Assembly: GCA_965198225.1 (NCBI GenBank)
Contig: CBDAOY010000009.1
Location: 960,001-1,024,000, forward strand
DNA from: Terriglobia bacterium
GTDB taxonomy: Bacteria; Acidobacteriota; Terriglobia; 20CM-2-55-15
Length of the DNA: 64,000 nt
Direction of reading: 5' to 3'
This document shows positions 16,430 through 38,478 of the stretch, in pieces. Made by a program: the position numbers and the translations under genes. The notes beneath the pieces are model-generated. The model saw only the letters and a program-made list of their open reading frames with translations, made no database searches and was not told where the DNA came from. Numbering within the stretch: position 1 is the first letter of the stretch; every line of letters starts with the position of its first letter.

Positions 16430-17197
16430 TTAACGGATTCTGAAGACGATGTCGTCTCCCCCGACAGCGAAAGTCGGGCCGTCGGCGTTGGCGGAGGTCT
16501 CCAGCGCCCGGTTGGCGCCGGCCGCGATTACTATGACTGCGACTTCGGGCAGACCGCTCAGTCCGAGCTGTGCGAAATGCCCCACGTGAAGCTTGCGGAC
16601 GTTGATCAGGTACTTGTTGCCCCAGGGGTCCGTCAGTGGGAGAGCGATGATGTAAGGACCGGACCAGCCTCGCTGGGGGTCTCCCACAATCGTTCCGCGC
16701 CTCGGATATTCCTCGGTGCCGGTGAACGTGATGCCACCATCGGTGCTGGTTCTGGCAATCTGGTTGGCGACGAGATGCCCTTCGACCGTGTCGTCATCCG
16801 CGACCAGTTCGTGGCCGAATGACGAGGCCGCACTCGCGTAGGTCGCCGGGCTCGCCGGTATGTCCCAGGTGGACCCGACCGTCTGATCCGTCGGATAGGT
16901 CCCATTCTGGGAGGCCAGGTTGTTGAAGAAGGCGTCGTTCGGACCCGTGGCGTTGCCCGACCGGAACAACGGCCAATGAGAGGTGTCCTGGTAGTACGTG
17001 ATTACGCCCTGACCGATCGCCTGGACGTCGGCGAGGGCGGCCTGAACATTGGCGTTGTCGATGGCGCCGATCGCGCCACCGACGGCAACGCCTGCCAGCA
17101 CTGCACCGACGGCGACCGTCGCGGTCGCTTCGATCAGTGAGGTCGCGACGCCCCTGGTTCCACCCAGTAGTTTTTTAATTATTGTTAGCGCGTTCAT
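16430..17197 (-). CDS. GspG-type pilin with atypical leader (RGVA|TSLIE)
   Basis: Hydrophobic N-terminal helix, GWSGPY, DPWGNKY, AAGANR..ET, GGDDIVFRI motifs. Confidence 0.85.
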   Translation of the reverse strand: MNALTIIKKLLGGTRGVATSLIEATATVAVGAVLAGVAVGGAIGAIDNANVQAALADVQAIGQGVITYYQDTSHWPLFRSGNATGPNDAFFNNLASQNGTYPTDQTVGSTWDIPASPATYASAASSFGHELVADDDTVEGHLVANQIARTSTDGGITFTGTEEYPRRGTIVGDPQRGWSGPYIIALPLTDPWGNKYLINVRKLHVGHFAQLGLSGLPEVAVIVIAAGANRALETSANADGPTFAVGGDDIVFRIR

Positions 17198-17238
17198 TGC
17201 TCAGCTCCTTCTCAAGTGTTCCGTTAGGCCCACTTAAA

Positions 17239-17254
17239 AGCACGCCGTGTGCCA
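17239..17254 (-). promoter_or_regulatory. Sigma-54 (-24/-12) promoter
   Basis: TGGCAC-ACGGC-GTGCT with GG-N10-GC spacing, ~40 nt upstream of the pilin start; a sigma-54 activator is encoded in the locus. Confidence 0.75.
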
Positions 17255-17493
17255 TTGTCTAAGTAGCTGAAAACACTGATTTCTAACTTTATCGTGTCCA
17301 CAGATTCTGTAGACGGACCATCCTCGCGTCAACAACTTTGTGGTCTTTAATGCAGGAATTACAGTTTAAGAGTCGCTGCACCTGTTGCAGCCTGGCGCAG
17401 CTACTGCGCGTCGAGATGCATTAGATAAACCGTGCGGGGGGCGTGACGAAGGAGAGAACATCCTGTTGGTATTCGCAGTTGGGAGGAGGATCC

Positions 17494-17715
17494 TCAGGGA
17501 GGAGCTATCACACTGAGGAACAAACGGTTCGACGCCCCGCTGTTCGGGTTGGTCACCGTGATCGCGAGGAGGCCGGGGGCGCTGATAATGAGGGCCGGCA
17601 CGGGCACCACGATCTGAGTAGGGGTGACCGAGGTCGGTGTGAGGGCTGCCGTGCCGAGCTGGACTGCGGCGCCAGTTTCAAAATTCGATCCGAAAATCGT
17701 CAGGTCGAACCGGGA
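17494..17715 (-). pseudogene. C-terminal IPT/TIG-like Ig-fold fragment lacking a start
   Basis: Manual translation FDLTIFGSNFETGAAVQLGTAALTPTSVTPTQIVVPVPALIISAPGLLAITVTNPNSGASNRLFLSVIAPP* matches the IPT pattern (LTI.GSNF...ITVTNP...SN). Confidence 0.7.
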
Positions 17716-18017
17716 GGACTCGGATCGTTACCGGGTCCGAGCTCGACGTCATATATGGCTGAACTCGTCGTGATCGACACACCGGAGACAAAAATCGGCC
17801 ACTTTCCCGTGTTCCTCCGGAAGTTCTGGACAGCCTTCGCGATCGTCTGAGTTTCTCGCGCCGCACGGGTCACCCGAGCGTCGTCGATCATGCCGGCGAC
17901 CATGGGAGTCAGGATTGCCGCCAGAATCCCCACTACGCCCAGGGCGACGACCATCTCCACCATCGTGAAGCCGCACTCGGAGCGCTCAGGGAACCGTGAA
18001 TGTGTTTGAAGAACCAT
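17700..18017 (-). pseudogene. Truncated GspG-type pilin (paralogue of 25024-25629)
   Basis: G|FTMVEMVVAL...ARVTRA...TGKWPIF.SGV.ITTSS; ends after ~85 mature residues at the junction with the IPT fragment. True start uncertain. Confidence 0.8.
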
Positions 18018-19161
18018 CGCTGAAGTCCACGGTCACGGTCACGCCGCTCAACGAGACGTTGCTTGCCGAGCCCGTGGCCGCGTCCTTGAAATTCTGGACC
18101 TTGATCGTCACCGTCTTCCCGACTCCCTTGATGGTGACGTCCGGGGCCACAGTTTGTTCCTGTTCGACCCGGATGGGAACGATCTGGGTCGGTTTGCCGC
18201 TGCCTTTGACCTGCTGGGCCGCGAAGGTTATGAGGTCCCCGCTGCCCTTACGGGTGCCGCCCCCGTAGTCGAACACGAAGTTTTTACCGAATTTGATCTT
18301 CTCGTAGTAGGCCTGCGGGGTGCTGGTGTAGGTCAGTCGGATCGATGTCACGTTGACCGCATTCGTGCCGAAGTTCGTTACCTTGAACTGGAGATCGTTG
18401 CCCCCCTTGATCTTGGCGGTGCCCTCCTCGTAGGTCAGCTTGGCGTCGATGCTGAGGCTTCGGAAGCCGAACGAAACGTCGTCGAAATCGAAATTGCCGC
18501 TGCCGTCGGTCACGTCGAACCGCTGAGTCACGGCGCCGTCTTCCGGGATGTTCAGTGTCACGGTCGCAAACTTCAGGACCTTCTTTTTCCTCTTGGCCAC
18601 CCCGGTGACTTGAGAGAAGACCTCATCCTTGAGGATATCGACGATCAGGTCGTCGCTGTTGCCCTTTATACCGTCGGGTCCAACGCTCTGGAGTCGGGCG
18701 GCCACTTCCGCGTTGTCTCCGCTCCGGTTGAACGTTGTCGAAGTGTAGACGTAGGCGTTTCCGAACGGATCCTTGTCGAACCCGATCAACCTTTCGACGG
18801 TGGTTTTCGGCACGTAGGGCCCCACCCATCCGGCGCCGACCAGGGTGTTTGTGTCGAAACTGAAGAGCGGGAAGGAGCCTTTCAACCAGAGTTTGGAGAG
18901 CTGGTCCGGGACGTCGCCGACCGTCCCTATGAACCCGAAGTCGGCCCGTCCCTCCGTGATGATCAGGTTGGGATTGCCGGTGATAGCGGTCTTGATCGAC
19001 TCCAGGTCGGATCGGGCTCTCATCGTCCCTTGAGAGACGAAGACCTGGTCGGCAATCGGAGCCGAAATGCCCAGAAGTATGGCCATCATCGCAATCAGTA
19101 CGATGGCTCCGAAGAGTCCCATGCCTCGAATGGTTGCTCGATCTTCCGTGATGGTGGTCAT
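17986..19161 (-). CDS. Large pilin-like protein, cassette 1 member A (no Glu5)
   Basis: RG|MGLFGAIVLI leader, RADFGFIG, GAGWVGPY, DPFGN, carboxypeptidase-regulatory-like beta domain, FSDGS C-terminus. Confidence 0.85.
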   Translation of the reverse strand: MTTITEDRATIRGMGLFGAIVLIAMMAILLGISAPIADQVFVSQGTMRARSDLESIKTAITGNPNLIITEGRADFGFIGTVGDVPDQLSKLWLKGSFPLFSFDTNTLVGAGWVGPYVPKTTVERLIGFDKDPFGNAYVYTSTTFNRSGDNAEVAARLQSVGPDGIKGNSDDLIVDILKDEVFSQVTGVAKRKKKVLKFATVTLNIPEDGAVTQRFDVTDGSGNFDFDDVSFGFRSLSIDAKLTYEEGTAKIKGGNDLQFKVTNFGTNAVNVTSIRLTYTSTPQAYYEKIKFGKNFVFDYGGGTRKGSGDLITFAAQQVKGSGKPTQIVPIRVEQEQTVAPDVTIKGVGKTVTIKVQNFKDAATGSASNVSLSGVTVTVDFSDGSSNTFTVP

Positions 19162-20366
19162 GGTTCGGTCTTTGCCGTAAAGAAAGTTACGGAGCCGTCG
19201 CTGAAATCCACGCGGAACGTCACCCCGGTCATGTCCACCGCGGCTCCGTTGCCGGTCTGGACATCGTCAAAATTCTCCAGCTCGATCTTGAGAGTGCCGC
19301 CGCTGCCCACGGTGCTGATCCGGATGTCGGGGATCTGAAAAAACTGTGAAGAAACCAGCGCGTGCAGGGGTTCCTGCGTCACGCCGGTCCCGGCGATGAC
19401 CTCGTTGGAGAAGGTTACCGAATCACCGGACCCTTTCCTGGGACTGTTCGAATTGTAGACCGTTGTCCCGTTCAACCGGACCCTTCTGTAGAAGCCCGGT
19501 GGATCCGAAGTGTAGGTGAGCGTAAACGAGGAGATCGTCGTGGCGTCTTTGCCGAGGTTCTCCACGACGAACTCGACGTCGTCTGCATTGTTGCTCGTGG
19601 CGAAGCCTGTATCGTCCTTGTAAGCAAGAAGCGGCATGACCTCAAAAATCCGGTCTCCATGCGGGACATCCAGGAACTCGAAGAAACCACTCGTGTCGGT
19701 CGCTGTCGTACTGGTAGCCACGGCGCCCGCCGAGGGATAGGACAGCTTGACATCGACTCCGGCCAGGATGTTGCCGTTGCGGCGCACGTACCCGAATACC
19801 CGGGAAAAGGCCTCGCCCTTGTGGATCTCGATCAGGCCGTCATCGGACGTGCCCACGGTGCCGTCGGGACCGGGGACCTTGATCGTGGCGACGATCGGGG
19901 CTCCTGTGAACGCGCTCGTTCCCGCGGTCGTGTCCAATACGACAGCGTTGCCCCACGGGTCTTCGAGCAGATCCATCGGAGCGGTGATCAGGTAGGGACC
20001 GCGCCAGCCGTGACCGAGTTGCGTGATCGATTCGACCACATAATCCGGCAGCGCCCCCACCTCCGCCAGTTGGGTGAGCGAGGAGGGCAGGTTCCCCATG
20101 TCGCCGACAAACCCGAATCGGGTGACGTTGTCCTGCCCGCGCTGGATCTCTCTGGGAGTACCCACGACCGCTCTCTTGAGGCGGACGAGTTGATCGACGA
20201 CCGCCCTGTCGCGGGCGTTGTCGATCGCTGCCGGGACACCGATACTGAAGGTCAGGGCCAGCAGGACCATGATGGCCATGACGAGTGACACTTCGAACAG
20301 CGTCATGCCACGGCAGCTGTCGGCCTGTCGTCGTTCGGCCGCCATACTGTTGCCCGTCACGTTCAT
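19158..20366 (-). CDS. Large pilin-like protein, cassette 1 member B
   Basis: RG|MTLFEV leader, RFGFVGDMG, GWRGPY, DPWGN, DMTGV.F..DFSDGS. Confidence 0.85.
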   Translation of the reverse strand: MNVTGNSMAAERRQADSCRGMTLFEVSLVMAIMVLLALTFSIGVPAAIDNARDRAVVDQLVRLKRAVVGTPREIQRGQDNVTRFGFVGDMGNLPSSLTQLAEVGALPDYVVESITQLGHGWRGPYLITAPMDLLEDPWGNAVVLDTTAGTSAFTGAPIVATIKVPGPDGTVGTSDDGLIEIHKGEAFSRVFGYVRRNGNILAGVDVKLSYPSAGAVATSTTATDTSGFFEFLDVPHGDRIFEVMPLLAYKDDTGFATSNNADDVEFVVENLGKDATTISSFTLTYTSDPPGFYRRVRLNGTTVYNSNSPRKGSGDSVTFSNEVIAGTGVTQEPLHALVSSQFFQIPDIRISTVGSGGTLKIELENFDDVQTGNGAAVDMTGVTFRVDFSDGSVTFFTAKTEP

Positions 20367-20370
20367 CGCC

Positions 20371-21572
20371 TTACGGCTCCACCGGTACGACGACGATCAT
20401 CGAGCCGTCGCTGAAAGTGATTTCGAAGATCACGCCGGACATGTCGACGGCGGTCCCCCCGCCTGTCTGCGTGTCGACGAAATTCTGCATCTGGATCTTC
20501 ATGGAGCTTCCTTTTCCGATCTTGCCGATCTGGATGTCCGCCACGTCCGTTATCGGCGATTGAAGTCGGATCGGGAGCGACTCTTCGACCGTGCCGCGCC
20601 CCTTCGCCGTTTTTCCGGAGAAATTCACCGTGTCTCCGGTGCCGAGTCGCGGGTTGCTGGAGTTGTACACCGTCGAACCGTCCACCCGCAGCCGGTTGAA
20701 GTAGGCGGGCGGATCGATCGAATAGTCGAAAGTCATGGAAGTGATCGTGATGTCTTCGGATGCGAAATTCTTGACGAAAAACTCGACGTCGTCGTTGTTC
20801 CCGCCCTTGACCACGGCCGTTCCGGCAGCCAGTACGAGTCGGGGCTCCACCGTCAGCGAGCGGTTTCCGAACGGAATGTCCGCGAAGAAGTAGTAACCCA
20901 GCGAATCGGTCGTGGCGGTCGAGGAAGTCAGAACACCGTTCTGGGCGTAGTTGAGGGTGATATCCATGCCCGGCACCACGTTGCCCTTGTTGTCGCGCAC
21001 GAAACCCTGAACCCTGGAGACGACTTCGGAGTTGAAGAAATTGACGGTGATGTCGTCGCCGTTGCCGAGAGAAAAATCCGGTCCCAGCGATGCCAGCTTT
21101 CCCTTCGCCCCGGCGCCGAACGTGGCATCAGTGAACGGGCTGTTGCTGTAGGAGAGTCCGTTGCCCCAGCCGTCCTTCATCAGGGCCGCCAGCGCCTCGA
21201 TCGTCTCGAGGGTCACATACGGGCCGTTCCAACCCGCGCCGGTCTTCTTCGTGGTGTCGAATGTGAACGCCGGCTGCGTGTCCTTGATCCAGAGGTCGGT
21301 CAGCGTCGCCGGCAGGTTGCCCATGTCGCCGACGTAGCCGAACGCCGTCCGGGTTTCATCGACCACGATCACCGGATCGCCCGACACGGCGCGCTGCAGG
21401 TCGGCCAGCCGATCTACGGTGATGTCGTGCTGAAGCATGTCGAGTGCGTTGCTGGCGACGCAAGGATCGACACGATCGCGAGCGTGGCCACGGCCTCGAC
21501 CAGGCTGAAGCCGGTTTCAATCCGTGCCTCCGTCGGCGAGGTCGACGCCAGCGTCTGGGAGGTCGATCTCAT
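20371..21572 (-). pseudogene. Large pilin-like protein, cassette 1 member C, frameshifted near 21450
   Basis: ATG at 21572 gives TG|FSLVEAVATLAIVSILA; the body continues in the 20371-21438 frame (AFGYVGDMG, GAGWNGPY, DGWGN, FSDGS). Confidence 0.8.
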
Positions 21573-22759
21573 TTCCGCTCCGGAGTGAATATGGCGACGG
21601 AACCGTCCGAAAACGTAACCTCGAACGAGATCCCGGTCATGTCGACGTCGGTGCCCGAGCCGGACTCGACGTCCTTGAAGTTCTGCAGCTTGATGCGCTT
21701 CGTTGCACCGGCCTGCGCGGACTGTCCAATGTTCTGGTCGAGCGCCAGGGTGAAGCCGGACTGGACCCGAACCGGGGATATCAGCCCGCTGTCGGAACCG
21801 GTCCCTTTGATCGTCTTGCTGGAGCTGAAGACGATGGTCTCGCCGCTCGCGGCTCTGTCCGAAGAGTCGTTGAAGACGGTCGAGTTGCCGACCTTGATTT
21901 TTTCGTAGAAAGCCGTCACATCGAATTCGGCCTTCAGGCTCGTGATGATGATGTCGTTGGCCGAGAAATTCTGGATGACGAACTCGACGTCGTTGTTCGA
22001 CCCACCCTTTGTGAAGCCGGTGTCGGCGACGTAGACCAGCGCGGGCTCGACTACCAGGCTGCGGTTGCCGAAAGGAACGTCGGTGAACGTGTACGCGCCG
22101 GACGCATTCGTGGTCGTGCTCGAGACTGCCGGGCTTCCGCCGGAAGGCTTGTTGATTTTGGCGGTCACGCCGGTCAGGGGATTCCCGCTGGCGTCCCGGA
22201 TGTATCCGACCACGGTCGCGAACAGGTCGGTCTCGTAGATTTCGACCGTGAGGTCGTCCCCTCCGCCCAAATCCGCATCCGGTCCGTAGCTGATCAGCCG
22301 GGCCCGGTACGTCTGTCCGGTCGATGAACTGACCCCGGTCTGGACCTCGTATACGATCGAGTTGCCCCATCCGTCGCGTGCGATGTCGGCGAATTGGTCC
22401 GTGGCGGGAACGCCGAAGTACGGACCGGCCCAGCCCGAACCCAACCTCAAGCTGGTGTCGAAGGTGAACAACGGCTGGGCGTTTCGAACCCAGAGCTCTT
22501 CCAGCGAGGTGGGCAGGGAGCCCATGGCCCCGATGAAGCCGAAATCGGTGCGGGATTCCTTCGTGACGATCCGTGGGTTTCCGATGATCGCGTGACGCAG
22601 TGCAGCAAGTCTGCGGCCGGTTTCGCGCTCGCGTTCGGCCTCCACCGGTTGGGAGAGTAGTGTAACCGTGCCGACAGCCACGAGCATCAGGATCCCCAGG
22701 CTGACGGAGACTTCCATCAGCGAGATCCCGCGATCACGTTGCGGACAGAGCGTTCCCAA
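21569..22759 (-). CDS. Large pilin-like protein, cassette 1 member D
   Basis: Probable TTG start after AGGAGG; RG|ISLMEV, DFGFIGAMG, GSGWAGPY, DGWGN, DMTGISFEVTFSDGS. Confidence 0.85.
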   Translation of the reverse strand: MGTLCPQRDRGISLMEVSVSLGILMLVAVGTVTLLSQPVEAERERETGRRLAALRHAIIGNPRIVTKESRTDFGFIGAMGSLPTSLEELWVRNAQPLFTFDTSLRLGSGWAGPYFGVPATDQFADIARDGWGNSIVYEVQTGVSSSTGQTYRARLISYGPDADLGGGDDLTVEIYETDLFATVVGYIRDASGNPLTGVTAKINKPSGGSPAVSSTTTNASGAYTFTDVPFGNRSLVVEPALVYVADTGFTKGGSNNDVEFVIQNFSANDIIITSLKAEFDVTAFYEKIKVGNSTVFNDSSDRAASGETIVFSSSKTIKGTGSDSGLISPVRVQSGFTLALDQNIGQSAQAGATKRIKLQNFKDVESGSGTDVDMTGISFEVTFSDGSVAIFTPERK

Positions 22760-22804
22760 TGCCTCCTCCTTGAGGTTGGTGCCCCGACGATCTTTCCCGC
22801 CGTC

Positions 22805-22915
22805 GGTACGACCAGTCACGCCGATCATTCGGCGTCATTAGGTTTAAGGATCGGCAACGGACGTCCGAAACTGCAACCAAAAGCGACGAGCCGGCAAACC
22901 AGACATCTGGTCAAG
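22805..22915 (-). promoter_or_regulatory. Conserved upstream leader, copy 1 (paralogue at ~24835-24950)
   Basis: Shared CGCTTTT..GGTTG.AGT...GATCC(T)TAAACC..ATGACGC(C/T)GAATGATCGGCGTGAC upstream of two different pilin genes. Confidence 0.55.
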
Positions 22916-22980
22916 ACGCTCGGGCGCGCTGGCTTCTCCGGACCCCGGTTTCTCCCTGGGAGCCGTTAGAGGAAATGCAT

Positions 22981-23255
22981 CTACTTGATTCGATAGATGA
23001 TGTCGTCGCCAGCCGGAGCGACAGCGGCTGTCTTGGAAATGTTGAAGCTTGTGTCGACCGTTGAGTCGGGTCCCGCCGAGAGGACGAAGCACGCATCGGC
23101 GCTCCCGCGCTTTGCGTTGATGATATTGACGAGATAACGGTTGCCCCATGGATCCGATCCGGGGTCCATGTATGGGCCGTTCCACTTGAACGGTCTGGCG
23201 GATGCCGTGGTCGTCGGATAGGAGGGAGCGTTTGTCAGAAGCTGCGGATAAGCGG
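22981..23255 (-). pseudogene. C-terminal half of a GspG-type pilin, cut by intron insertion
   Basis: KWNGPY...DPWGNRYLVN...LSAGPD..DT...GDDIIYRIK; the upstream frame runs into intron sequence. Confidence 0.85.
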
Positions 23256-23259
23256 TATA

Positions 23260-24577
23260 TCGCGCCAAGCAAAGCTTGGGAAAGGGGAATTTGATGTGAG
23301 TCGATGAAACCTTTCGAAAGGAATCCAACTGGTGAAAATCCAGTCCGGCTAAAGCCGTAGCGGGCAGGCCGGTAGCGAGTCTTGCCTGTCGCCGGGTGAT
23401 CGGCGGGAGAGAAGCGTAGACAGCGAGGAAGTGGCGCAGCGAGGCTAGCTGCTGTGCTAGCGGGTGCAAGTCCCGCCGGCGCAATTTCCAGTATGGCGCC
23501 GTAGTTATATCCGGCAGTTATTGGGGTGACCCAATGGCTGGAAGCCCGGAAGTAAAAGCTCTAGACGGGGGAGAGGCGACACCGTATCTGTCCGGATCAG
23601 CACAGGGAGCAAGCAACCCGGAGGGCCGTAGCGAGAGCGAACGAACAAGACGCCGAAATGGCTGTCCCCGCATGAAGCTGATTTGCGGGAACGTTGGAGA
23701 TGCCAAGTGGTTCCCACTTTTTCATGATGGCCAGTGTCGGTATGGAAGAACTGGAGTGAGCACATACCGAATCTCCCGGCGTAGGCTGAAGGCGGCAATC
23801 CTGGAGAGTACAGTAGCGAAAGCCCGGAAGGTCTGGTGACCAGGCAGGAGGGTCCTTGAATGCCAAAGACTATCGCTATAACCGGCACTGCCGGGAAATG
23901 GGATGGAGGCCACCAGACTGGCGGATGGGGTCGCCAAGCGAGGATGGTTGGGACAACATAACCCAACTGGAGCGAGGACCCCAGGGCCCAGGTGAGGTCG
24001 ACCGCGGTCAATGGTCCCACACTCTGAAGTGGAGAATCCAGTTGACCGGGACGGCCCCTAAGGGCGGAGCAAACTGATTCGGCGAACGGTGTATTGTCGG
24101 GACCGGACTTTAGCCGCGAGCGGAGCCAGGAAGGCTTCGTGCCGAACTTACAGGTGCCTGGCGCTTGAAGCCGTACTGGGGAAAACCCGACGTACGGAAT
24201 TTCAGGGAGGGCGGCTGGAAACGTGAGCCATGGCAGAATTAGGAACCCGCTCCACGTATCGAAAGAGTGGAAGTCGGAAACTCTCATGCCTACAGTTGCG
24301 CGCGCCAGTGCTCTACCCGACGGCCGCGAGGATTCAGCTCCGAAATTTATTACGTTGCGGATGCCGAGGCTTTTATATCGGTCGAAGGCCGCATCCGGAC
24401 AGCCGTCATGCGAGGTTGTCGGGAGCCGCCGGAGTCTCTAGCCCGGGGCACGCTTCCACAGGGATTCTCCAGGAACTTGGGAAAGCCTCGCAATCTCCTC
24501 TCGAAGAGGTAGTCGGCGGTCGAGGGCAACCAGAGACTGCGGGCGACGGGTTGAGAGGAATCTTATGAGCCCATAGT
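23260..24577 (+). mobile_element. Outer group II intron, 5' domains only, split by an inner intron
   Basis: Domain I hallmarks GGTGAAAATCC and GAAGCGTAGACAGCGAG resume after the inner intron as GGCCGCG..ATTCAGCTCCGAAAT, GCCGAGG...GAAGGC, CCAGGAACTTGGGA, ATGAGCCCATAGT; no domain V or RT ORF follows. Confidence 0.7.
23434..24321 (+). mobile_element. Inner, apparently complete ORF-less group II intron (~890 nt)
   Basis: 5' GCGGGTGCAAGTCCCGC loop, domain V GAAGCCGTACTGGGGAAAACCCGACGTACGGAATTTC at ~24167-24203, long domain VI ending CTCTACCCGAC; no RT ORF. 5' boundary uncertain by about 3 nt. Confidence 0.85.
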
Positions 24578-24628
24578 GTGTGCTGAGCAGCGCACCGCTC
24601 AGGAGGGTTGAAGTCCCTCCGGTGATCG
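24578..24628 (+). mobile_element. 5' stub of a third group II intron
   Basis: Canonical GTGTG start followed by GGAGGGTTGAAGTCCCTCC, exactly where the outer intron breaks off. Confidence 0.55.
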
Positions 24629-24636
24629 GATGAGGG

Positions 24637-24801
24637 TCACCGTATCGCTCCAGGTCCGCCTTGGCTGTTTCCGGCTTTCGCCTTCATCAACGACGATGCG
24701 AGCGGGACGAGAAAACCCGCCATGATGCTGACGATGAACAGTGAGGCGACCACTTCCGGCAGAGTGAAGCCGCGGCTTCGGCAACGACCGGAGAGACTCA
24801 T
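24637..24801 (-). pseudogene. N-terminal fragment of a GspG-type pilin
   Basis: RG|FTLPEVVASLFIVSIMAGFLVP leader, then degenerate (ETAKADLE in another frame); probable partner of 22981-23255. Confidence 0.75.
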
Positions 24802-24834
24802 GCGCGTTCTGCGTGGACGATCATTCACCGTCGT

Positions 24835-24950
24835 CGGTCTCCAAGCCGGTCACGCCGATCATTCAGCGTCATGGGTTTAGGATCTGAGAAGGGCGTCGGG
24901 GACTTCAACCTGAAAAGCGTCGAACCGACAAAAACACACATCGACCTAAG
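24835..24950 (-). promoter_or_regulatory. Conserved upstream leader, copy 2
   Basis: Paralogous to 22805-22915. Confidence 0.55.
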
Positions 24951-25023
24951 AATATGGCCTGTTTTTGTTTAGGGGAGAGTCTGACTCTGGGGCGGGGAGG
25001 GGGTTCAACAGCCCTGGGAGAGC

Positions 25024-25629
25024 TTATTTCACTCGCCCGACGATATCGTCGCCGCCGATCGTCACCGCGCCGGCGCCGGATCCGATGTTCTGGTCGAACG
25101 TGGTTTCGATCTGCCCGTTAGGTCCGGCCGAGATGACCATTCCGGCCTTCTGGACCCCGAAGCGGAGGTTCTCGGCGCTGACCAGGTAGGCGTTGCCCCA
25201 GGGATCGTCGCCGAGCTCCTGAACGTAGGGGCCGCGCCACGCAAACCGGCCGGCCGTGCCGTATCCGGGGACGTTGCGGCCGAGAATGTCTTCAAGATCT
25301 CCTCGCTCGTTGAGGGCCGGCAACCATTCGCTGTCGGTAGCCGAGGGAAGGGTTCCCGGGCCGAGCAGGATCTCGTAGTAATCGGAAGATGTGGTGATGC
25401 CGACGCCCGACTTGAAGATCGGCCACTTGCCTGTCGCCTTGTTGAAGTTCCGGATGGCCTGGCCGATGTTCACGACCTCCAGCTCGGCCCGTGTGACGCG
25501 GGCTTCTTCCACCAGTCGGCTCACCATTGGCGTGAGAATCGTGACGAGTATCACCAGGACCGCCAGAACCACAACCACTTCCAGGAGAGTGAACCCGAAT
25601 TCTTGCCTGCCGACGAATCTCATGATCAT
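25024..25629 (-). CDS. GspG-type pilin, last gene of cassette 2
   Basis: G|FTLLEVVVVL, WRGPY, DPWGNAY, SAGPNG.IET, GGDDIVGRVK. Confidence 0.9.
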   Translation of the reverse strand: MIMRFVGRQEFGFTLLEVVVVLAVLVILVTILTPMVSRLVEEARVTRAELEVVNIGQAIRNFNKATGKWPIFKSGVGITTSSDYYEILLGPGTLPSATDSEWLPALNERGDLEDILGRNVPGYGTAGRFAWRGPYVQELGDDPWGNAYLVSAENLRFGVQKAGMVISAGPNGQIETTFDQNIGSGAGAVTIGGDDIVGRVK

Positions 25630-26792
25630 GGCACCGAAAACGTGTTGACCGAGCCGTCGCTGAAGCCGATCGTAAACGTGACGCCGCTGACCGAGACGCC
25701 GCTCGCGGATCCCGTCGCTGCATCTTTGAAGTCTCGAATCTCGACGACGACGGACTTGCCGACTCCTCGAATCTCGACGTCCGGCGCTGCCGTGACCTCC
25801 TGTTCCACGCGGATCGGGATGACCTGCGTCGGCTTGCCCGTTCCGGCGACCGCCACCGCGGAGAAATTAATCGTCTCGCCGGTGCCCGGCCGGACACTGC
25901 TGTTGTCGGTGACGTAGTCGAAGACCTGCGTGTTTCCGATCTTGACTTCCTCGTAGTAGGACGCCGGCGAAGACGTGTATGTCGCCGTCATCGACGTGAC
26001 GTTGACCGCGTCGGACCCGAAGTTGGCCACCGTAAACTTGAGTCGGGTGCCCTGCAGCTTGGCGGTGCCGTTCTCATAGGTCAGCCGCGGATCGATGGCC
26101 AGGCTGCGAAACCCGAACGAGACATCGGTGAACGTGAAGTCGCCGCTGGCGTCGGTGACCGCGACGCGCTGGTCCACTGCGCCGTCAACCGGTACGTTGA
26201 GGGAGACGGAAGCAAAGGGAACAGTCTGATTGTTCCGCTTCAACGTCCCGTTGACGGTCGAGAAGATTTCTCCCTTGAGAAGGTCGATGGACAGGTCGTC
26301 GTCGGTTCCGCTCGTCCCGTCGGCGCCGAGGCTCGTGATTCGGGCTGCGACAAGGGCGTTATCCGAGGCACGGTTGAACTCGGTTGACGTGTACACAAGC
26401 GGATTTCCGAAGGGATCCAGGTCCAGCGTCAGGAGATCCTCGACGAACGTGTCGGGCGCGTAGGGGCCCACCCACCCGGCACCGACCAGGTCGGTCGTGT
26501 CGAAGACGTAGCCCGCCTGAGCCCCCTTGATCCACAGTTTGTCGAGCGTGACTGGTACGCCTCCCATTGTGCCGATGTAACCGAAATCGGCCCGGCCGCC
26601 TTCAATCACCAGGTTCGGATTACCGGCCATGGCTGTCTTGAGCGCTTCCAGATCCTCGCGAGCCTGCAGCGTTCTCGAAGCATTCGCAACCTGGTTCGCC
26701 ACCGGGACCGAAGCGACGATTAACGCGGTGGTCATCGCCATGAGGACGACGGCCCACAGGATTCCCATTCCCCTGTTTCGCTCCTGATTCAT
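25626..26792 (-). CDS. Large pilin-like protein, cassette 2 member A (no Glu5)
   Basis: RG|MGILWAVVLM; colinear paralogue of 17986-19161 (e.g. GKPTQ.(V/I)PIRVEQE.T.APDV). Confidence 0.85.
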   Translation of the reverse strand: MNQERNRGMGILWAVVLMAMTTALIVASVPVANQVANASRTLQAREDLEALKTAMAGNPNLVIEGGRADFGYIGTMGGVPVTLDKLWIKGAQAGYVFDTTDLVGAGWVGPYAPDTFVEDLLTLDLDPFGNPLVYTSTEFNRASDNALVAARITSLGADGTSGTDDDLSIDLLKGEIFSTVNGTLKRNNQTVPFASVSLNVPVDGAVDQRVAVTDASGDFTFTDVSFGFRSLAIDPRLTYENGTAKLQGTRLKFTVANFGSDAVNVTSMTATYTSSPASYYEEVKIGNTQVFDYVTDNSSVRPGTGETINFSAVAVAGTGKPTQVIPIRVEQEVTAAPDVEIRGVGKSVVVEIRDFKDAATGSASGVSVSGVTFTIGFSDGSVNTFSVP

Positions 26793-27982
26793 GGCATCTG
26801 CCTCGTCGTGAAGAGTGTTGTCGAGCCGTCGCTGAAAACGATCTCGAAGGTCACGCCCGTCATGTCCACGTCGGCTGCTCCACCGCCGGTTGGAGCATCG
26901 GCGAATTCACTCAGTTCGATGTTGAGGGTACCGCCCGTTCCGATCGCGTTGATGCTGATTTCAGGCACCTGGAATGCCAGCGACGAGACCACAAGATGCT
27001 GAGGCTCCTGGATGACGTTGGTCCCGGCGACCAGTTCGGCGGGAAACGTGATGACATCGCCCGAGCCGGCCCTTGGGCTCGTCGAGTTGAACACGAGTGA
27101 GTCGTTGATCCGGACCTGCTCATAGTAAGCCGGCGGACTCGAAGAGTATGTCAACGTGAACGAAGTGACCGTCGTGGAGTCTTTGCCTAGATTCTCGATC
27201 ACGAACTCGACATCGCTGAACTGGACAGTCGTCGTGAATGCCGTGTCCTGCTGGTAGCTGAGCTTGGGATTGACCTCGATCACCCGTTCCCCGTGAGGAA
27301 TGAGACCGAACGAGTAGAAACCATCCGCATCGGTTGCCGTCGTGGTGGTGATGATGCTGCCGGCGTCCGGGTACGATATGACGACGTCGACCCCGGGTAT
27401 GGTGTTCCCGCCGGGGTCGCGGATGTATCCGAACAGGTCTGATTTCGCCTCTCCTTTGTAGATCTCGACGCTCTCGTCGTCCGCGGTGTCGGCGACGCCG
27501 TCACCTCCCAGAGAACGGATCGTCGCGACCACGGTCGAACCCGTGGATGCACTCGTCTTTTGAGTTGTGTCCAACTCCAACGGATTGCCCCAGGGGTCTT
27601 CAAGGAAATCCAGCGGATCGGTGGCGATGTAGGGACCGCGCCAGCCCGACCCGAGTTCGATGATGGACGTGACTTCGTAGGCGGGCTGAGCTCCGATGTC
27701 GATCAGATTTCCGAGAGCGGCCGGAAAGCTTCCCATGTCGCCGACGTAGCCGAAGCGACTGATGTTCCCCTCGCCCAGGCGTATAACGGAAGGCTCACCG
27801 ATCAGCGCTCGCTTGACGCGCATGACCTGTTCCCGGGTCTGCTCCGAGCGGTTTTGCTCCATGGTCAGAGGGACCATGAAGCCGAAGCTGTATGCCAGCA
27901 ATGCCAGAACCGACAGCGCAAGCGTCACCTCCGGAAGGCTGGTGCCCCGGTTGCCTCCGGACGGCTTCGTCGGTTTCCTCAT
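26789..27982 (-). CDS. Large pilin-like protein, cassette 2 member B
   Basis: RG|TSLPEV; colinear paralogue of 19158-20366 (RFG.VGDMG, GWRGPY, ENLGKD.TT..SFTLTY). Confidence 0.85.
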   Translation of the reverse strand: MRKPTKPSGGNRGTSLPEVTLALSVLALLAYSFGFMVPLTMEQNRSEQTREQVMRVKRALIGEPSVIRLGEGNISRFGYVGDMGSFPAALGNLIDIGAQPAYEVTSIIELGSGWRGPYIATDPLDFLEDPWGNPLELDTTQKTSASTGSTVVATIRSLGGDGVADTADDESVEIYKGEAKSDLFGYIRDPGGNTIPGVDVVISYPDAGSIITTTTATDADGFYSFGLIPHGERVIEVNPKLSYQQDTAFTTTVQFSDVEFVIENLGKDSTTVTSFTLTYSSSPPAYYEQVRINDSLVFNSTSPRAGSGDVITFPAELVAGTNVIQEPQHLVVSSLAFQVPEISINAIGTGGTLNIELSEFADAPTGGGAADVDMTGVTFEIVFSDGSTTLFTTRQMP

Positions 27983-28350
27983 GGCGTGGGATCCGTCGGC
28001 GTCGCGACGACCACCGACCCGTCACTGAACGTGAGCTCGAAGATCACGCCGGTCATGTCAACCGCGTTGCCGTTGCCGGTTGCCGTGTCTTCGAAGTTCT
28101 GCATCTCGATCGTCAACGAGCTGCCCCGGCCGATGTCGCCGATCACGATATCGTTGACGTCGGTAATCGACGACTGGATGCGGATCGGGAGCGATTCGGC
28201 GACCGCGCCGGTGCCGTCGATGGTTTCGGCCGCAAAGTTTGATGTGTCTCCGGTCGCAAACCGCGGGTTGCTGGAGTTGAAGACCGTCGTGTTGCCGATC
28301 CGGAGCCTTTCGAAGTAGGCCGGCGGCTGGATGTCGAAATCGATGGTCAC
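27979..28350 (-). pseudogene. C-terminal part of cassette 2 member C
   Basis: PPAYF.RLR...TV.NSSNPR..TGDT...ESLPIR.QS.ITDV matches 20371-20750; the 5' two-thirds are missing. Confidence 0.85.
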
Positions 28351-29795
28351 CGGCGACACCGTCAACCAGACTTCCCGCATGGCCGGTGTCGGCAAACCGG
28401 ATCAGATCATCATCTCCCGTTCCATGATCGACGTTCTCAGCGAGAACGACAAGTTCATCTGTCGGTTTGTCGGGAAGGCTGATTTTCACGGCAAGACGGG
28501 CACCGTGGAGCTGTTCGAAATCCTCACCGAGAAGCCGGAACTCAAGGAGAAGCAGAAATCAAGGATTGTCTCCGAAAGCGTTCTCGCGGCAGAGGCGGAG
28601 ACGCCAAAGGGTCGGTTGATCGGCGATAAGTACTTCATCGAGAAGCTGATCGGTGAGGGCGCTTACGGTAAGGTTTTCAAGGCCCGCCATGCCGAGTCCA
28701 AGGACATCGTCGCGATCAAGATGCTTCCCGAAGACGCTTACTCGTTCTACAGCCGAGAGGCGCAAGTATTGCGCCAGTTGCAACCTTGCCCCTACATCAT
28801 GAGCATCATCGATGCGTTCGTCGACCAGGAGGGCCTCTGTATCGTCATGCCCTACATCGAGCACGGCAGCCTGCAGACCTACATGAACAAGCTGCACGGC
28901 GATCCACTCGAACCGGGACAGACGATTTCGCTCATGGAAGAGCTCCTGCTCGGCATCTCCCACGCCCATTCGCGGGACGTCATCCACCGGGACGTGAAAC
29001 CCCAGAACATCCTGCTGGGGAACGGAACAGATGGGATCCTGACCGATTTTGGTGTGGCCTATGCCATGGAATCCACCGGGCGAACGACGACGATGACAGC
29101 GGGAACTTCCGGGTATATCGCTCCCGAGGTCACCTCGGGAAGGTTCGACAGCTCGATCGACGTTTACTCCGCCGGCGTCGTCCTCTACAAGATGCTCGGC
29201 GGTGAGTTCCCGGTCGATATGCAGACCCTGCCTCCCTACACCCATCCGGATTTCGTCAAGATCATCGGCCGGTCCATCGCCGATCGCTCCAGGCGCTATT
29301 CGAAACCCGAAGATATGCTGGAGGATCTTCGCTCCATGGGCTCGAAGGTGCTCGGCTCGACGATTCAGTTCCATCGCGCAGTCCGGCGAAGAGCGGGTGC
29401 TGGTGGCCAGTGGGGACTCCAGCTGGGCCGTCCTGGAACCGGCACTGGCCGAGCGCAAGCTGAGCACCATGCGCTGCGGCCTCGACGACCTGCTCAAGCA
29501 GATACACTGGCACATTCCCGCCGTAACGGTTCTCGACTTCACGCTGCTCGCCATGTCGATGTCCAGCGTTCCCGACCAGGTTCACGCGTGCAGTGCGCTC
29601 GGCACGAAGGTCGTCGTCATCAACTGTGGGTCCATCGACGAGGCTTGGGGAATGCTCAAGGCCGGGGCCTCGGATTGTACGCCGTCGCTCGAGGCTCCGC
29701 AGGCGATCGAGGCGTTGACAATGTCCGTTGATACGCTCATCACACAGATACAGCTGGGTGGCGGAAAGTCCTGGTGGAAAAGGATTATCAGCTAG
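28350..29795 (+). pseudogene. Class III cyclase fragment - Ser/Thr kinase - receiver-like fusion; 5'-truncated and frameshifted near 29360
   Basis: GDTVNQTSR and GK.G.VELFEI (cyclase C-terminal half); GEGAYGKV, AIK, HRDVKPQN, TDFG, GT.GYIAPE, DVYSAG (kinase); receiver-like tail in a second frame. Confidence 0.8.
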
Positions 29796-29944
29796 CCTTG
29801 CCATAGCGAACCCCAACAGCCAGGTGCGTCTGAAGCGAGTTGCGTCGGACGGTCGTCCGATCGTGGAAGTCCCGGGGAAGGGAGGATCGAGGGCGGAAAG
29901 AGCCGGCCTCGATCCGACGATCGACGGCCGGCCCATTCTGAAGT

Positions 29945-30529
29945 TTACTGGATTCGAGTCACGATGTCGTCGCCGCCAACCGTGACAGACGCGCTTGTTG
30001 CCTGGGTGCGGTCTGTTTCCAGCGTGCTGTTCGGTCCAGCCGATATGACGTAGGCGTGATCCGACCGAGTGTTCTTGAGCGCGTGTGCAGTCACGAGGTA
30101 CGCATTGTTCCAGGGGTCGGACGCGATGTTCATATAAGGGCCCCGGTAGGCGACCCGGCCACCGCGCGCGCTTGTCGGGAGGGAGAGCTTGTTCGTATTC
30201 AGATATTCGTCCAGTCCGATCGTCGTCAGCGCGGAAAGGGTCCAGTCCACCCCTCCGGCATCGGCGACAAGGGTTCCGTCTCCAAACAGCACGTCACCCG
30301 CTGCGGTGTCCGCATTGGCGTTGGCGATGTTGGAAAAGATCGGAAACCTGGCCGTATCTCGTTTGTAGGCCAGAAGCGACGTCCTTATCGCGCGAGCATC
30401 CGCCGCGGCTCGCGTGACCCGCGCCTGGTCGATGTAGCCGACCACGAGCGGGGTCATGATAGCTGCAAGGATCGCGATCACCCCCAATACGACCGCCAGT
30501 TCGATGAGTGTAAAGCCCTTGGATTTCAT
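29945..30529 (-). CDS. GspG-type pilin
   Basis: MKSKG|FTLIEL, YRGPY, DPWNNAY, SAGPN, GGDDIVTRI. Confidence 0.9.
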   Translation of the reverse strand: MKSKGFTLIELAVVLGVIAILAAIMTPLVVGYIDQARVTRAAADARAIRTSLLAYKRDTARFPIFSNIANANADTAAGDVLFGDGTLVADAGGVDWTLSALTTIGLDEYLNTNKLSLPTSARGGRVAYRGPYMNIASDPWNNAYLVTAHALKNTRSDHAYVISAGPNSTLETDRTQATSASVTVGGDDIVTRIQ

Positions 30530-30582
30530 TGATTCATCCTCGTCCGGGTTCGTCGCGTTCCACACACTCGGAGAAAACGGTA

Positions 30583-30615
30583 GTTCCGGTCGCGACACCG
30601 TGTCGCGACCGGAAC
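30583..30615. terminator. 15-bp perfect hairpin between two pilin genes
   Basis: GTTCCGGTCGCGACA-CCG-TGTCGCGACCGGAAC. Confidence 0.6.
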
Positions 30616-30624
30616 ACCAGCCGC

Positions 30625-31206
30625 TTAATTGATCCGGACGACGATGTCGTCGTTAGCCACGGTGACCGTCGTCGTGGTCTGATCCCGAGTCGTGTCCAGG
30701 GTGCCATCCGCGCCGGCCGAGATGACGTAGGTGATGTTCGTGTCACTGTCAACGTTCGACGCGTTGACCAGAAACGCATTGCCCCACGGATCGTCGCCAA
30801 CGGTGTCCAGGTAAGGACCGCGGTATGCAATCCGGCCTCCACGGAAATTACCACTCGTGTTCAGACTGAGTTTGTTGGTGTTGATGAATTCAATGATGCT
30901 GGCAGACGCGCTCGTCGTCGTCGTCCAGCCGTTGCCCGTCGACGGGATATTAAGGGAGCTCCTGAAATCGACCTCGTCTTCAGTGCCGGCCCGCGCAAGG
31001 GTGAGGGTTTCGTAGACCGGATAAAAGCTCGTATCCCGCTTGTGCAACTGGTATGCCGTTGCGATAGCCCTGGCGTCGGTGGCGGCCCGGGTTACCCGCG
31101 CCTGGTCGATGTAGCTGGTCACCAGGGGTGTGAGCATCGCGGCCAGGACCGCTATTACGGCCAGAGTGACCGCCATTTCGATAAGAGTGAAACCTTTGGC
31201 TTTCAT
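30625..31206 (-). CDS. GspG-type pilin, candidate major subunit
   Basis: MKAKG|FTLIEM, YRGPY, DPWGNAF, SAGADG..DT, DDIVVRIN; strong AAGGGAG RBS. Confidence 0.9.
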   Translation of the reverse strand: MKAKGFTLIEMAVTLAVIAVLAAMLTPLVTSYIDQARVTRAATDARAIATAYQLHKRDTSFYPVYETLTLARAGTEDEVDFRSSLNIPSTGNGWTTTTSASASIIEFINTNKLSLNTSGNFRGGRIAYRGPYLDTVGDDPWGNAFLVNASNVDSDTNITYVISAGADGTLDTTRDQTTTTVTVANDDIVVRIN

Positions 31207-31271
31207 TGTCGTTCTCCCTTTACTTGTGAGTTGTAAATCTGTTCGTGAAATCATGTCCGATAGCTCGTAAA

Positions 31272-31955
31272 TTATTGAATCCTATATATGATATCGTCGC
31301 CGACGGCAGAGAACGAATCGTTCAACTGGTCGAAGCGTGTCTCGATCGTCCGGTTCGCTCCGGCCGAGAGTACTACGACCGCGACCCGGCCGCCTGTGGG
31401 TATTCCCAGGCTCTGCCGGACCAGATCGACACCCTGAGGAGTGAGAAACTGGACGTTGACCAGGTAGCGGTCTCCCCAGGGATCCTTGGACAGATTGCTC
31501 AGGTACGGCCCGTTCCAGCCCTTCTGCCGGTTGAACGAAATCTCTCCGACACGACGGTAACTCGGTCCGTTCTCGTCGGGTTCGTTCTCGATCAGGTGGT
31601 TCTCAAGCAAGTCGATTTCGTCGTCATCGGTCGGCCAGGAATTCGTATTGTCCGCGGCATCGTCGCCGTCTGATTCCAGGACGTGGAAAATGTCGTCGTT
31701 CTTGGAGGTTGCGAGTCCCGATTTGTAAGCGGGCGGGAATCCGGTGTCCTGCATGAAGTTGAGAGCGGCCCCGGCGATCAATTCCAGATCGGCAACAGCC
31801 CGGGCCCGTCTCGCGTCCTCCATGTTTCCGAGAAGTCTACCTGCGCCGGCGCTGGCGATAATGGCCACCACGGCGATGACCACCACAGTCTCCACCAGTG
31901 AGGTGGCAGTGCCGCGATTGTCATGGAATGTGTTTCGTAACTTCATCGGTTTCAT
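31272..31955 (-). CDS. GspG-type pilin with atypical leader (RGTA|TSLVE)
   Basis: GWNGPY, DPWGDRYLVN, SAGANRTIET, GDDIIYRIQ; paralogue of 16430-17197. Confidence 0.85.
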   Translation of the reverse strand: MKPMKLRNTFHDNRGTATSLVETVVVIAVVAIIASAGAGRLLGNMEDARRARAVADLELIAGAALNFMQDTGFPPAYKSGLATSKNDDIFHVLESDGDDAADNTNSWPTDDDEIDLLENHLIENEPDENGPSYRRVGEISFNRQKGWNGPYLSNLSKDPWGDRYLVNVQFLTPQGVDLVRQSLGIPTGGRVAVVVLSAGANRTIETRFDQLNDSFSAVGDDIIYRIQ

Positions 31956-31971
31956 GCCTCGCCGCCTTTGA

Positions 31972-31988
31972 AGCAATTGGTGTACCAA
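31972..31988 (-). promoter_or_regulatory. Sigma-54 (-24/-12) promoter
   Basis: TTGGTAC-ACCAA-TTGCT, near consensus, just upstream of the pilin array and downstream of the activator gene. Confidence 0.8.
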
Positions 31989-32188
31989 CTTTAACGTGTT
32001 GAAATTACGAGCATTACGCAATAAGCATTCTACGATAATTGTTGACTTGACGAGCTGAGGGCTACACATTTTGTGGGAATCTGCGACATTTGCCTGAAAG
32101 AGGAGCGGTGAGGACACCGGCTGTAACAGGGTGGCGAGCGGGTCGGGCGCAACAAAATTATCTATTTCATTGGCCTAAGGACGGTGGG

Positions 32189-33585
32189 TCAGGACTCGCT
32201 GTCTTCTGAAGAAGCTTCTTCGGCGACCTTGATTTCGTACTTTTTCACCTTGTACCAGAGCACCCGTTCGGTGATGCCAAGCATCTTTGCTGCCTTCCGC
32301 TGGACGCCGTCGCATCGCTCGAGCGCATCGAGGATCAACTGGCGCTCCACATTCCTAACAGTTTCGTTCAGGTTTTGAGTCGCGGTGGGAATGGTCGCCG
32401 GCGCCTTGTCGTCGACCTGCCTGCTGATGTGGGGAGGCAAGAACTTCGAAGTGAGGACTTCACCGTCGGCGATGAGGACCGATCGCTCGACGGTGTTCTT
32501 CAACTCCCGGACGTTTCCCGGCCACCGGTACTCGATCAGGCGGTTCATCGCGTCGGACGATATGGACTGGACCGTTCGTCCGAAATTACGGTTCGCGTCC
32601 GCCAGGAAATGATCGGCCAGGATCGGGATGTCTTCGATCCGCTCGCGCAGTGCCGGCATGTGCAGGGAGAAGAGATTCAGGCGGTGGAACAGGTCTTCAC
32701 GGAAGGCGTGCTCCGTGACGGCCTGGCTGAGGTCCTTGTTCGTTGCCGCGATCACGCGCACGTCGATCGAGATGGGTTTGGTCCCGCCAAGGCGCTCGAA
32801 CTCCATCTCCTGCAGGATGCGCAGGATTTTCGCCTGTGCCTGAAGGTTCATGTCGCCGATCTCATCGAGGAAGATCCCTTGTCGGCCATTTCGAACTTCC
32901 CGATCTTTCGCTCGGTCGCGCCGGTGAAAGCTCCCTTTTCGAAACCGAAGAGTTCGCTCTCGAGCAGTCCTTCGGGAATGCCGGCGCAATTCAGTTTGAC
33001 CATCGCCTGATCAGTCCGCGGACTGTTCTGGTGTATCGCCCGTGCGATCAGTTCCTTTCCGGTACCCGTTTCGCCCCAGATCAAGACCGTCGCGGTCGTG
33101 TCGGCGACACGGCTGATCAATCTCAGAATCTCCTGGATCGCACCGCTCTTGCCAATGATGTTCTGAACTTGAAACGTCTCGCTGAGCTGTTCTCTGAGGA
33201 TCCGGAGATCGCGTTCCAGTTGTCGGCGCTCCAGAGACCGTTTCACCACGATCTCCATCTCTTCCATTTTGTACGGTTTGACGAAATAGTCGTACGCGCC
33301 CCGCTTGATCGCTTCGATCGCCATTTCTTTGGAGCTGAGCGCCGTGATCATCAGGATCACGATGGAAGGATCGATTTCCTTGAATTTCGAGATCGCGTCG
33401 ATTCCGCTGATTCCGGGAAGCTGGATGTCGAGCAGGATCAGGTCAGATGGCTGCTGCTTGATCTTCTTGAGCCCGGTTTCGGCGTCGCCAGCTTGATCGA
33501 CCGCGTAACCCCGTTTCACGAGCGCTTCCCGGAGAACGAACCGTGAGACTTCTTCGTCGTCGACGATGAGGACGGATTCTTTCAT
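32189..33585 (-). pseudogene. Sigma-54-dependent response regulator (NtrC/PilR-like), frameshifted near 32875
   Basis: Receiver domain, GETGTGKE, ESELFG, GAFTGA, FLDEIGDM, FREDLFHRL, WPGNVREL, C-terminal HTH. Confidence 0.9.
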
Positions 33586-33635
33586 AGTTCACTGGGGTAT
33601 GAGTGTGGCATCGTCAAGTATTGAATAACGCGTGA

Positions 33636-35109: not shown

Positions 35110-35194
35110 GACTCGTCGGTCGTGAATGAATCGCGATGTGATTGAGAGATCTCTGGCTTTTCCGGAAAACTGGTGGATCTTATTGCAAATCGAC

Positions 35195-37460: not shown

Positions 37461-37462
37461 TC

Positions 37463-38427: not shown

Positions 38428-38478
38428 AAACGCCTCGATACGGTTGCCCTGAAAAACGGGGCATTCCGGATCCCGCCG

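Follow-up and report, generated by a model that had tools for sequence, protein, structure and literature searches.

A conserved quartet of paralogous modular pilins in a type IV filament locus of Terriglobia: a possible capped tip complex built from one gene family

In type IV filaments, it is the tip complex that starts assembly and that has the adhesive or secretory role. Its four known subunits are so divergent that, to our knowledge, their origin is unknown. In the GspH-I-J-K and PilH-I-J-K (FimU-PilVWX) sets, four co-transcribed pilin genes stand in a fixed order, the last of which lacks the glutamate at position +5 (Glu5) but retains the glycine of the cleavage site. Type IV filaments grow from tip to base, the core minor pilins form the tip complex, and its cap lacks Glu5, since the partner of this residue is the N-terminal amine of the next subunit up (PMC10191384). 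We analyzed a 64,000-nucleotide stretch, here called the window, of a genome of 6.4 Mb in nine contigs (G000:C9:960001-1024000; all positions below are those of the window). It encodes four pilins, D, C, B and A, that are paralogous, keep one order and coupled reading frames, are linked to filament machinery, and have lost Glu5 in the last large gene only, with the cleavage glycine (Gly-1) kept. To our minds the odds are about even that D, C, B and A make up a capped minor-pilin priming or tip complex built from one gene family.

The quartet, which we call cassette 1, lies on the minus strand. D (22828-21569; 419 residues; G/ISLME, with the slash at the cleavage site and position +5 last), B (20366-19158; 402 residues; G/MTLFE) and A (19161-17986; 391 residues; G/MGLFG, without Glu5 and with Gly-1 kept) are intact pilins of three modules each. 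C (21572-20371) is broken, as described below. The stop codon of D overlaps the start codon of C by 4 nucleotides (nt) (ATGA, 21572-21569), 4 nt separate C from B, B overlaps A by 4 nt, and A overlaps the gene of a small GspG-like pilin by 32 nt. An earlier note made from the letters of this DNA alone had described such coupled boundaries, and it had called the four proteins mutual paralogues, which is borne out by pairwise identities of 33 to 42% across 348 to 390 aligned columns. The shared motifs that it quoted, R..FG[FY].G..G..P, GW.GPY, D[PG][WF]GN and a terminal ...FSDGS, all occur in the proteins. Its four genes of about 400 residues were found at their coordinates, with D, B and A intact and C split by a 16-nt deletion; the small pilin that it placed after A (18017-17700, minus strand) is also present, in cassette 1 as a truncated copy of 105 residues.

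Class III signal peptides, i.e., a short leader ending in Gly followed by a hydrophobic helix of about 20 residues, were identified in D, B and A, in the N-terminal fragment of C, and in B2 and A2 of a second cassette. Glu5 was present in all nine D, all eight C (as well as in the window's C fragment) and all eleven B proteins, 28 of 28 taken together, and in none of ten A proteins. A large protein collection held 43 A-type proteins; the +5 residue was readable in 40, and none of these had Glu. Gly was found at -1 in 34 of 34 A-type homologues. Thus, A lacks Glu5 in both copies (G/MGLFG in A, G/MGILW in A2), the D, C and B types carry it, and its loss coincides with the last large gene, all as the earlier note had proposed. 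A therefore shows the feature that marks the GspK/PilX cap, absence of Glu5 in the last minor pilin gene.

A profile search of 1.84 billion representative proteins gave 5,670 hits at E <= 0.001, 260 of them at E <= 1e-30. About 80 of the best 150 hits, which were listed, covered the whole three-domain architecture. Homologues that clearly typed as A lacked Glu5, and some distant ones had Q, H, S or T at +5. In other acidobacterial families, eight loci show a simpler layout, in which small GspG-like pilins are followed by two modular pilins with the same pilin module; the second of the two lacks Glu5 in five of the eight.

We compared the cassettes with the loci of relatives, six from five public metagenome-assembled genomes (MAGs) and five from a scan of the taxonomic order (34 genomes of 11 genera, threshold E <= 1e-20; L039 duplicates L013). 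The nearest public relatives of the window are MAGs of Terriglobia, Solibacteraceae, Candidatus Sulfopaludibacter. The order D-C-B-A was found in seven of seven complete quartets from six genomes, D being interrupted in L010 and L012. A small pilin followed A in six of the seven, and the L014 locus ends at A. The six loci of the public MAGs share the layout small pilin, D, C, B, A, small pilin, preceded by a divergent kinase gene. From the loci of the taxonomic order came one further complete quartet (L040) and, as collinear remnants, L041 (D, C and a fragment of B), L042 (C without its N terminus, a frameshifted B, and A) and L043 (D only). Order is thus conserved, partial cassettes included, and homologues occurring singly, a pattern that would speak against such a set, were not seen in the taxonomic order save for deletion remnants.

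Matches occurred in 10 of the 34 genomes and 5 of the 11 genera, always clustered at one locus except in genome G416, which has two quartets about 21 kb apart. The counts per genome were 8, 7, 5, 5, 4, 4, 4, 4, 3 and 1, a count of 5 representing a quartet with D split in two. In a sample of the phylum (401 genomes, four candidates scored per genome), full-length matches were restricted to the window's genome (G000) and G049, which has four in tandem and is flagged as unpublished.

Phylogenetic analysis placed the A, B and C types each with their own kind, as the earlier note had predicted for A and B. The tree of 31 rows excluded the C2 fragment and two D fragments from L010, and used two other modular pilins of L011 as the outgroup. 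In it, the A (8 rows), B (8) and C (7) types were each recovered as one clade with a Shimodaira-Hasegawa-like approximate likelihood ratio test (SH-aLRT) support of 100, and D (6) was basal. Separation into the four types is therefore older than the split between these genomes. Cassette 1 of the window paired with L009, and cassette 2 with L010, L011 and L012, which indicates that the duplication of the cassette is older than the species of the window and that the copy beside the kinase gene holds the ancestral position. Insertions of about 300 nt were also seen in relatives, one within D in L010 (6618-6940) and one separating D from C in L009 (7327-7642).

D, C, B and A each consist of a GspG-like pilin module, a transthyretin/CnaB-like stalk and a terminal beta-sandwich. 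We compared an AlphaFold2 model of A (mean predicted local distance difference test [pLDDT] score of 78.8, with low values, below 50, at residues 67-74 and 94-116) with about 48,000 Protein Data Bank (PDB) representatives. The model comprises an N-terminal helix of 54 residues, a small alpha/beta module up to about residue 178, and two beta domains. Its pilin module, which includes both low-confidence stretches, aligned with EpsG (4lw9_A; Z 8.2, root-mean-square deviation 3.3, 97 residues) and PulG (5wda_A; Z 7.5, 122 residues). The middle domain matched folds of the transthyretin, carboxypeptidase-regulatory and CnaB type at Z 8.2 to 11.1 (3e8v, 4yok, 1qmu, SpaA 3htl, SdrD, BcpA). The Pfam model CarboxypepD_reg exceeded its cut-off of 32.3 bits in D (35.5) and C (37.1) and stayed below it in the others. 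With CarboxypepD_reg in D and C and three domains in the model of A, the proteins combine a pilin module with at least one domain foreign to pili, and each quartet protein by itself fits the definition of a modular pilin given by Raynaud et al. (PMC8179133).

The terminal domain had been described in the earlier note as an adhesin-like head. Modeled alone, the last 149 residues of A gave a pLDDT of 82.2, and a Foldseek search of the C-terminal domain returned no PDB match at E <= 0.001. The best VIA-align matches, the N-domain of ScsB (Z 7.5), FlaF (7.1) and CBM32/35 domains (5.5 to 6.3), were all within the range of chance. According to the model, this domain is best described as a generic beta-sandwich without an assigned fold family. 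Mean pairwise identity was 46 to 54% for the terminal domains and 52 to 58% for the pilin module. An adhesin-like character was thus not borne out, the domain being no more variable than the pilin module.

The same data bear on the idea that D, C, B and A are shaft subunits of a thick heteropolymeric filament, in which a GspG-like core is sheathed by beta domains. In the model of A, major pseudopilins are the nearest match of the pilin module, and all three modules are equally conserved, as expected of packing surfaces. Nevertheless, repeated polymerization is not expected of a subunit that lacks Glu5 (PMC10191384), and canonical small GspG-like pilins are encoded immediately after the sigma-54 activator, where major pilins are usually found. 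We consider this arrangement highly improbable.

The quartet is part of a type IV filament locus that is self-contained and comes from a Terriglobia (Acidobacteriota) lineage. Machinery and regulatory genes lie upstream of the pilins on the same strand (32189-47066, minus). They encode a GGDEF protein, an MshE-like ATPase, a platform protein, PilM-like and PilO-like proteins, the product of one further open reading frame (ORF), a secretin, AAA_22 and TPR proteins, a prepilin peptidase (35590-35901), a PAS histidine kinase and a sigma-54 activator. Next come the genes of the pilin-like proteins p281, p209 and p217, then a cyclase/kinase gene in divergent orientation, both cassettes, p255, and a convergent homoserine dehydrogenase gene; p255 and the latter are also found downstream in relatives wherever the contig reaches. 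The ATPase has the N-terminal cyclic di-GMP domain of MshE, a feature of MSHA-type (T4eP) filament systems (PF05157, 71.8 bits; NF053729, 56.8 bits with a cut-off of 38). The TPR and AAA_22 proteins match only generic or PEP-CTERM models, below their cut-offs. Two adjacent paralogues of about 760 residues with CBM9-like and DUF5916 domains are encoded beside the locus (47559-49817 and 50147-52492, plus strand).

Several other pilin-like proteins are encoded here. p281, p209 and p217 (29945-32117, minus) include two GspG-like proteins with a canonical KGFTLIE N terminus, p209 and p217, which are the candidate major pilins, downstream of the sigma-54 activator; p281 is non-canonical. p255 (16430-17197, minus), the last pilin gene of the locus, is pilin-like with the non-canonical N terminus RGVATSLIE. 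It shares with p281 (31272-32117, minus) a conserved N terminus, RG(V/T)ATSL(I/V)E, in which cleavage after Gly places Glu at +7, and Glu falls at +5 only if cleavage occurs after Ala. A search for the sigma-54 pattern TGGCAC-N5-TTGC with up to two mismatches gave 41 matches, compared with 47.7 expected by chance, and so provides no evidence for such promoters. Sites with one mismatch are found ahead of p255 (17240-17254) and within the p281 ORF, in its 5' part (31973-31987).

The linkage of quartet and machine was assessed in the 34 genomes of the taxonomic order, with the PilM-like protein as the marker of the machine. Both were present in 8 genomes, the quartet only in 2, the machine only in 2, and neither in 22. 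On shared contigs, 8 to 20 kb separated them, except in G416 (about 150 kb). This association bears on the notion that D, C, B and A stand outside any filament, their class III signal peptides only anchoring or exporting envelope proteins with beta domains, as in the large pilin-like families of other soil phyla. In line with it, the Pfam N_methyl model (PF07963) stays below its cut-off of 21.2 bits in D (19.7) and B (16.1) and does not match A, although the small pilins pass; T2SSG scores 14.2 to 17.2 bits for A, B2 and A2 against a cut-off of 21; and no NCBIfam family, TIGR01710 included, matched A or D. However, the quartet is tightly linked to, and co-occurs with, a complete filament machine that has its own prepilin peptidase, and its predicted fold is GspG-like with a conserved G.DG..G..DD loop. 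A role outside the filament thus seems very unlikely to us.

How does this set compare with described systems? Like GspH-I-J-K and PilH-I-J-K, the quartet is followed by a further small pilin and is linked to a secretin-containing machine. Unlike those sets, whose members are mutually very divergent and belong to four families, it consists of clear GspG-type paralogues, each with two extra beta domains, and it contains no T2SSK, T2SSI, T2SSJ or GspH domain. None of these four Pfam families matched in the window, but all occur in other parts of the genome, next to another ATPase, T2SSK (PF03934) with three matches. Lacking the T2SSK domain, the set would act in the manner of these families yet lie outside them. 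With GspG, PulG and EpsG, the quartet has in common the motifs GW.GPY, DPWGN and G.DG..G..DD and, judging from the model of A, the fold of the pilin module, but those proteins have about 140 residues and ours about 400, and ours fall below the T2SSG cut-off. We take DPWGN and G.DG..G..DD to be GspG motifs, its calcium loop included. The nearest ESM Atlas clusters, to be read as leads only (scores of 0.94 to 0.95), are unnamed N_methyl/T2SSG proteins of about 370 to 420 residues from WOR-3, Fidelibacterota and Zixiibacteriota.

The modular pilins PilB and PilC of Streptococcus sanguinis likewise have an N-terminal pilin module with grafted domains and are predicted to be exposed at the tip; they are single genes with von Willebrand factor A (vWA) or lectin modules (PMC8179133), whereas here four paralogues have the same two-domain extension and Glu5 follows an ordered pattern among them. 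CofB and TcpB of type IVb pili are large pilins with beta domains that initiate assembly at the tip (as cited in PMC8179133 and PMC10191384); they form homotrimers of one protein, in contrast with four different paralogues here, and no sequence relation between them and the quartet was found. The fold of the middle domain recurs in the CnaB/transthyretin-like stalks of sortase pilins and of adhesins of the MSCRAMM (microbial surface component recognizing adhesive matrix molecules) type, whose assembly systems are unrelated, so that only a spacer fold is in common. A literature search with few subscription journals and no supplements returned nothing published on a quartet like this one or on comparable pilins of acidobacteria. 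What is new, these comparisons suggest, is a capped set of recognizable major-pilin-type paralogues with two-gene relatives that hint at its origin.

If the quartet works as a capped tip complex, D, C, B and A would be made in equal amounts, be processed by the locus's own prepilin peptidase, and assemble first, as the priming or tip complex of the filament. A would occupy the apex, with D, C and B beneath it, and would not need the Glu5 salt bridge because no subunit would lie above it. The small GspG-like pilins would polymerize below the quartet, and eight beta domains would be displayed at the tip for adhesion. As to how such a set arose, a tentative and somewhat doubtful scenario is that the tip module was rebuilt from duplicates of a major GspG-type pilin, two-gene versions with one member carrying and the other lacking Glu5 having expanded to an ordered four, each with stalk and head.

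A number of observations weigh against such a complex. Five of the ten genomes that bear the PilM-like protein have no intact quartet (G000, G412, G413, G421 and G422); thus, either the quartet is not essential or the locus as a whole is prone to decay. In three of the eight distant two-gene loci, Glu5 is retained by the last modular pilin. The pilin module of each of the four proteins is like the major pseudopilin GspG and unlike GspH, GspI, GspJ or GspK, and A has no GspK-type domain. Judged by their sequences, the terminal domains, about as conserved as the pilin module, do not look like the product of ligand-driven diversification. No structural support for a heterotetramer was obtained; a prediction of the complex of the four pilin modules of the intact L009 quartet of the closest relative, made from alignments and without controls, gave an ipSAE of 0.01 in two runs and counts neither way. 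Finally, the small pilin that precedes D in relatives, the one after A, p255 and p281 could be the real priming set.

Some of these points would fit D, C, B and A being independent accessory modular pilins, each an adhesin-type minor pilin as understood by Raynaud et al. (2021), inserted singly at or near the tip of a filament that the small pilins prime, with no obligatory tetramer. The frequent partial loss of the quartet while the machine gene stays open argues for this explanation, as does the presence of several other pilin-like genes in the locus. Yet it leaves unexplained why one order and coupled frames persist across genomes whose orthologues are only 45 to 60% identical, and why Glu5 has been lost in every member of exactly one clade. 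We therefore regard independent accessory pilins as an unlikely explanation, if one to be kept in mind. Of the tip-complex-like tetrad drawn in the earlier note, the single gene family, the order and the loss of Glu5 in A stand; the adhesin-like heads are not supported, and the two alternative tips do not hold for this genome.

The two tips refer to a second, diverged cassette that lies nearby. Its A, B and C types are 60% (A-A2), 53% (B-B2) and 60% (C-C2, over 135 columns) identical to those of cassette 1. On the minus strand it comprises a C2 fragment (28395-27979), the last 128 or so residues of a C-type gene whose 5' end is lost near 28352, B2 (27982-26789; 397 residues; G/TSLPE), A2 (26792-25626; 388 residues; G/MGILW, without Glu5) and an intact small GspG-like pilin of 201 residues (25629-25024), for which both T2SSG and N_methyl exceed their cut-offs. 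The second copy is thus real, in the form of a deletion remnant without D2 and most of C2. Two alternative tips are not available in this genome, as cassette 2 has lost those parts and C is broken in cassette 1. Two complete quartets were found only in the closest relative.

The deletion can be located. C2 and the divergent cyclase/Ser-Thr kinase gene (28331-29795, plus strand) are both truncated at the 5' end and abut at about 28352. Relative to L011, as measured by hand, about 3.4 kb is missing there, i.e., the kinase N terminus, a small pilin, D2 and most of C2. The kinase gene, cyclase/kinase/receiver-like and divergent from the pilin operon in all relatives (601 to 611 residues), has about 120 N-terminal residues fewer than they do and a frameshift near 29370. 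We compared positions 17000-29900 of the window with contigs of public metagenomes. The contig of one run (X3, to 28380) bridges the junction, and those of X1 and X4 run on at 28352 into a stretch that shares about 78% identity with C; both forms therefore exist in nature.

The stretch between the cassettes (22981-24801, minus) is a wreck that contains a pilin stump, intron-like repeats on the plus strand, and a C-terminal stump that is part of the small pilin preceding D in relatives. The pilin stump (24637-24801) retains the N-terminal 54 codons (RGFTLPEVV...) of the orthologue of a 466-residue modular pilin of L011. In that closest relative, a second modular-pilin pair follows cassette 2 (L011 12049-16085), with 466 residues and Glu5 in one member and 382 residues and no Glu5 in the other; the pair has the same pilin module and different C-terminal domains. 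The repeats comprise two Rfam group-II-intron D1-D4 matches (23335-23474 and 24278-24444, plus; 60.8 and 62.7 bits) and a further piece at 24647-24685, on the strand opposite the broken pilin gene. Neither an intron ORF nor a D5/D6 match was found for those at 23335-24444. Copies of a 39-nt piece of the repeat number about 17 in the genome, and those of an 80-nt piece about 6, the pairs lying roughly 450 to 500 nt apart, and metagenome contig depth is 150 to 700 at the repeats and about 10 around them. They look like a family of short intron-derived repeats.

Lesions also affect cassette 1. The prepilin helix of C, GFSLVEAVATLAIVSILA, which includes GFSLVE, is encoded in a separate frame that ends at 21414, and the rest of C lies in another frame, as a body ORF of 355 residues (21438-20371). 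An alignment with three orthologues locates a 16-nt deletion between 21460 and 21459, within the transmembrane helix. An assembly error was considered as the cause and is ruled out: contigs of four public runs from four studies span the site gap-free (X1, 17000-23286; X4, 17000-23368; X3, 20435-22764; X8, 20610-22764), so that the frameshift is not an error of the window's assembly. The small pilin after A corresponds to only residues 8-108 of a 207-residue orthologue. Contigs of X3 and X8 join position 17748 to 25208 through 33 other letters, which suggests a related strain with another arrangement of small-pilin genes or with a single cassette.

The machinery is damaged as well; these lesions lie beyond 17000-29900, the span of the contig comparison, and are therefore read from the assembly itself. 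The gene of the MshE-like ATPase (43970-45600, minus) is broken: relative to the G416 orthologue it lacks residues 296-308, 13 residues just before the Walker A motif, with a change of frame at 44713-44716. The AAA_22 gene is frameshifted near 38098, the sigma-54 activator gene is also frameshifted, and the PAS histidine kinase lacks its C-terminal part. Intact are the platform protein, PilM, secretin and TPR genes, and the long ORFs that flank the locus. Because C is frameshifted, the small pilin after A truncated, cassette 2 without D2 and most of C2, and the ATPase broken, the system is probably not working in this genome. As the copy in the window has decayed, an intact relative is better suited for work on the system.

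The quartet is a real, conserved and testable system, and its mechanism is what we infer here. As a one-family set with simpler two-gene relatives, it would allow direct tests of both the origin of tip complexes and the role of the loss of Glu5. If the tip module was indeed rebuilt from duplicates of a major pilin, this system would offer a traceable de novo origin of a capped minor-pilin complex, with the loss of Glu5 as the step that fixed the cap. Such a set would also provide a first handle on the pili of the abundant and poorly studied soil Acidobacteriota.

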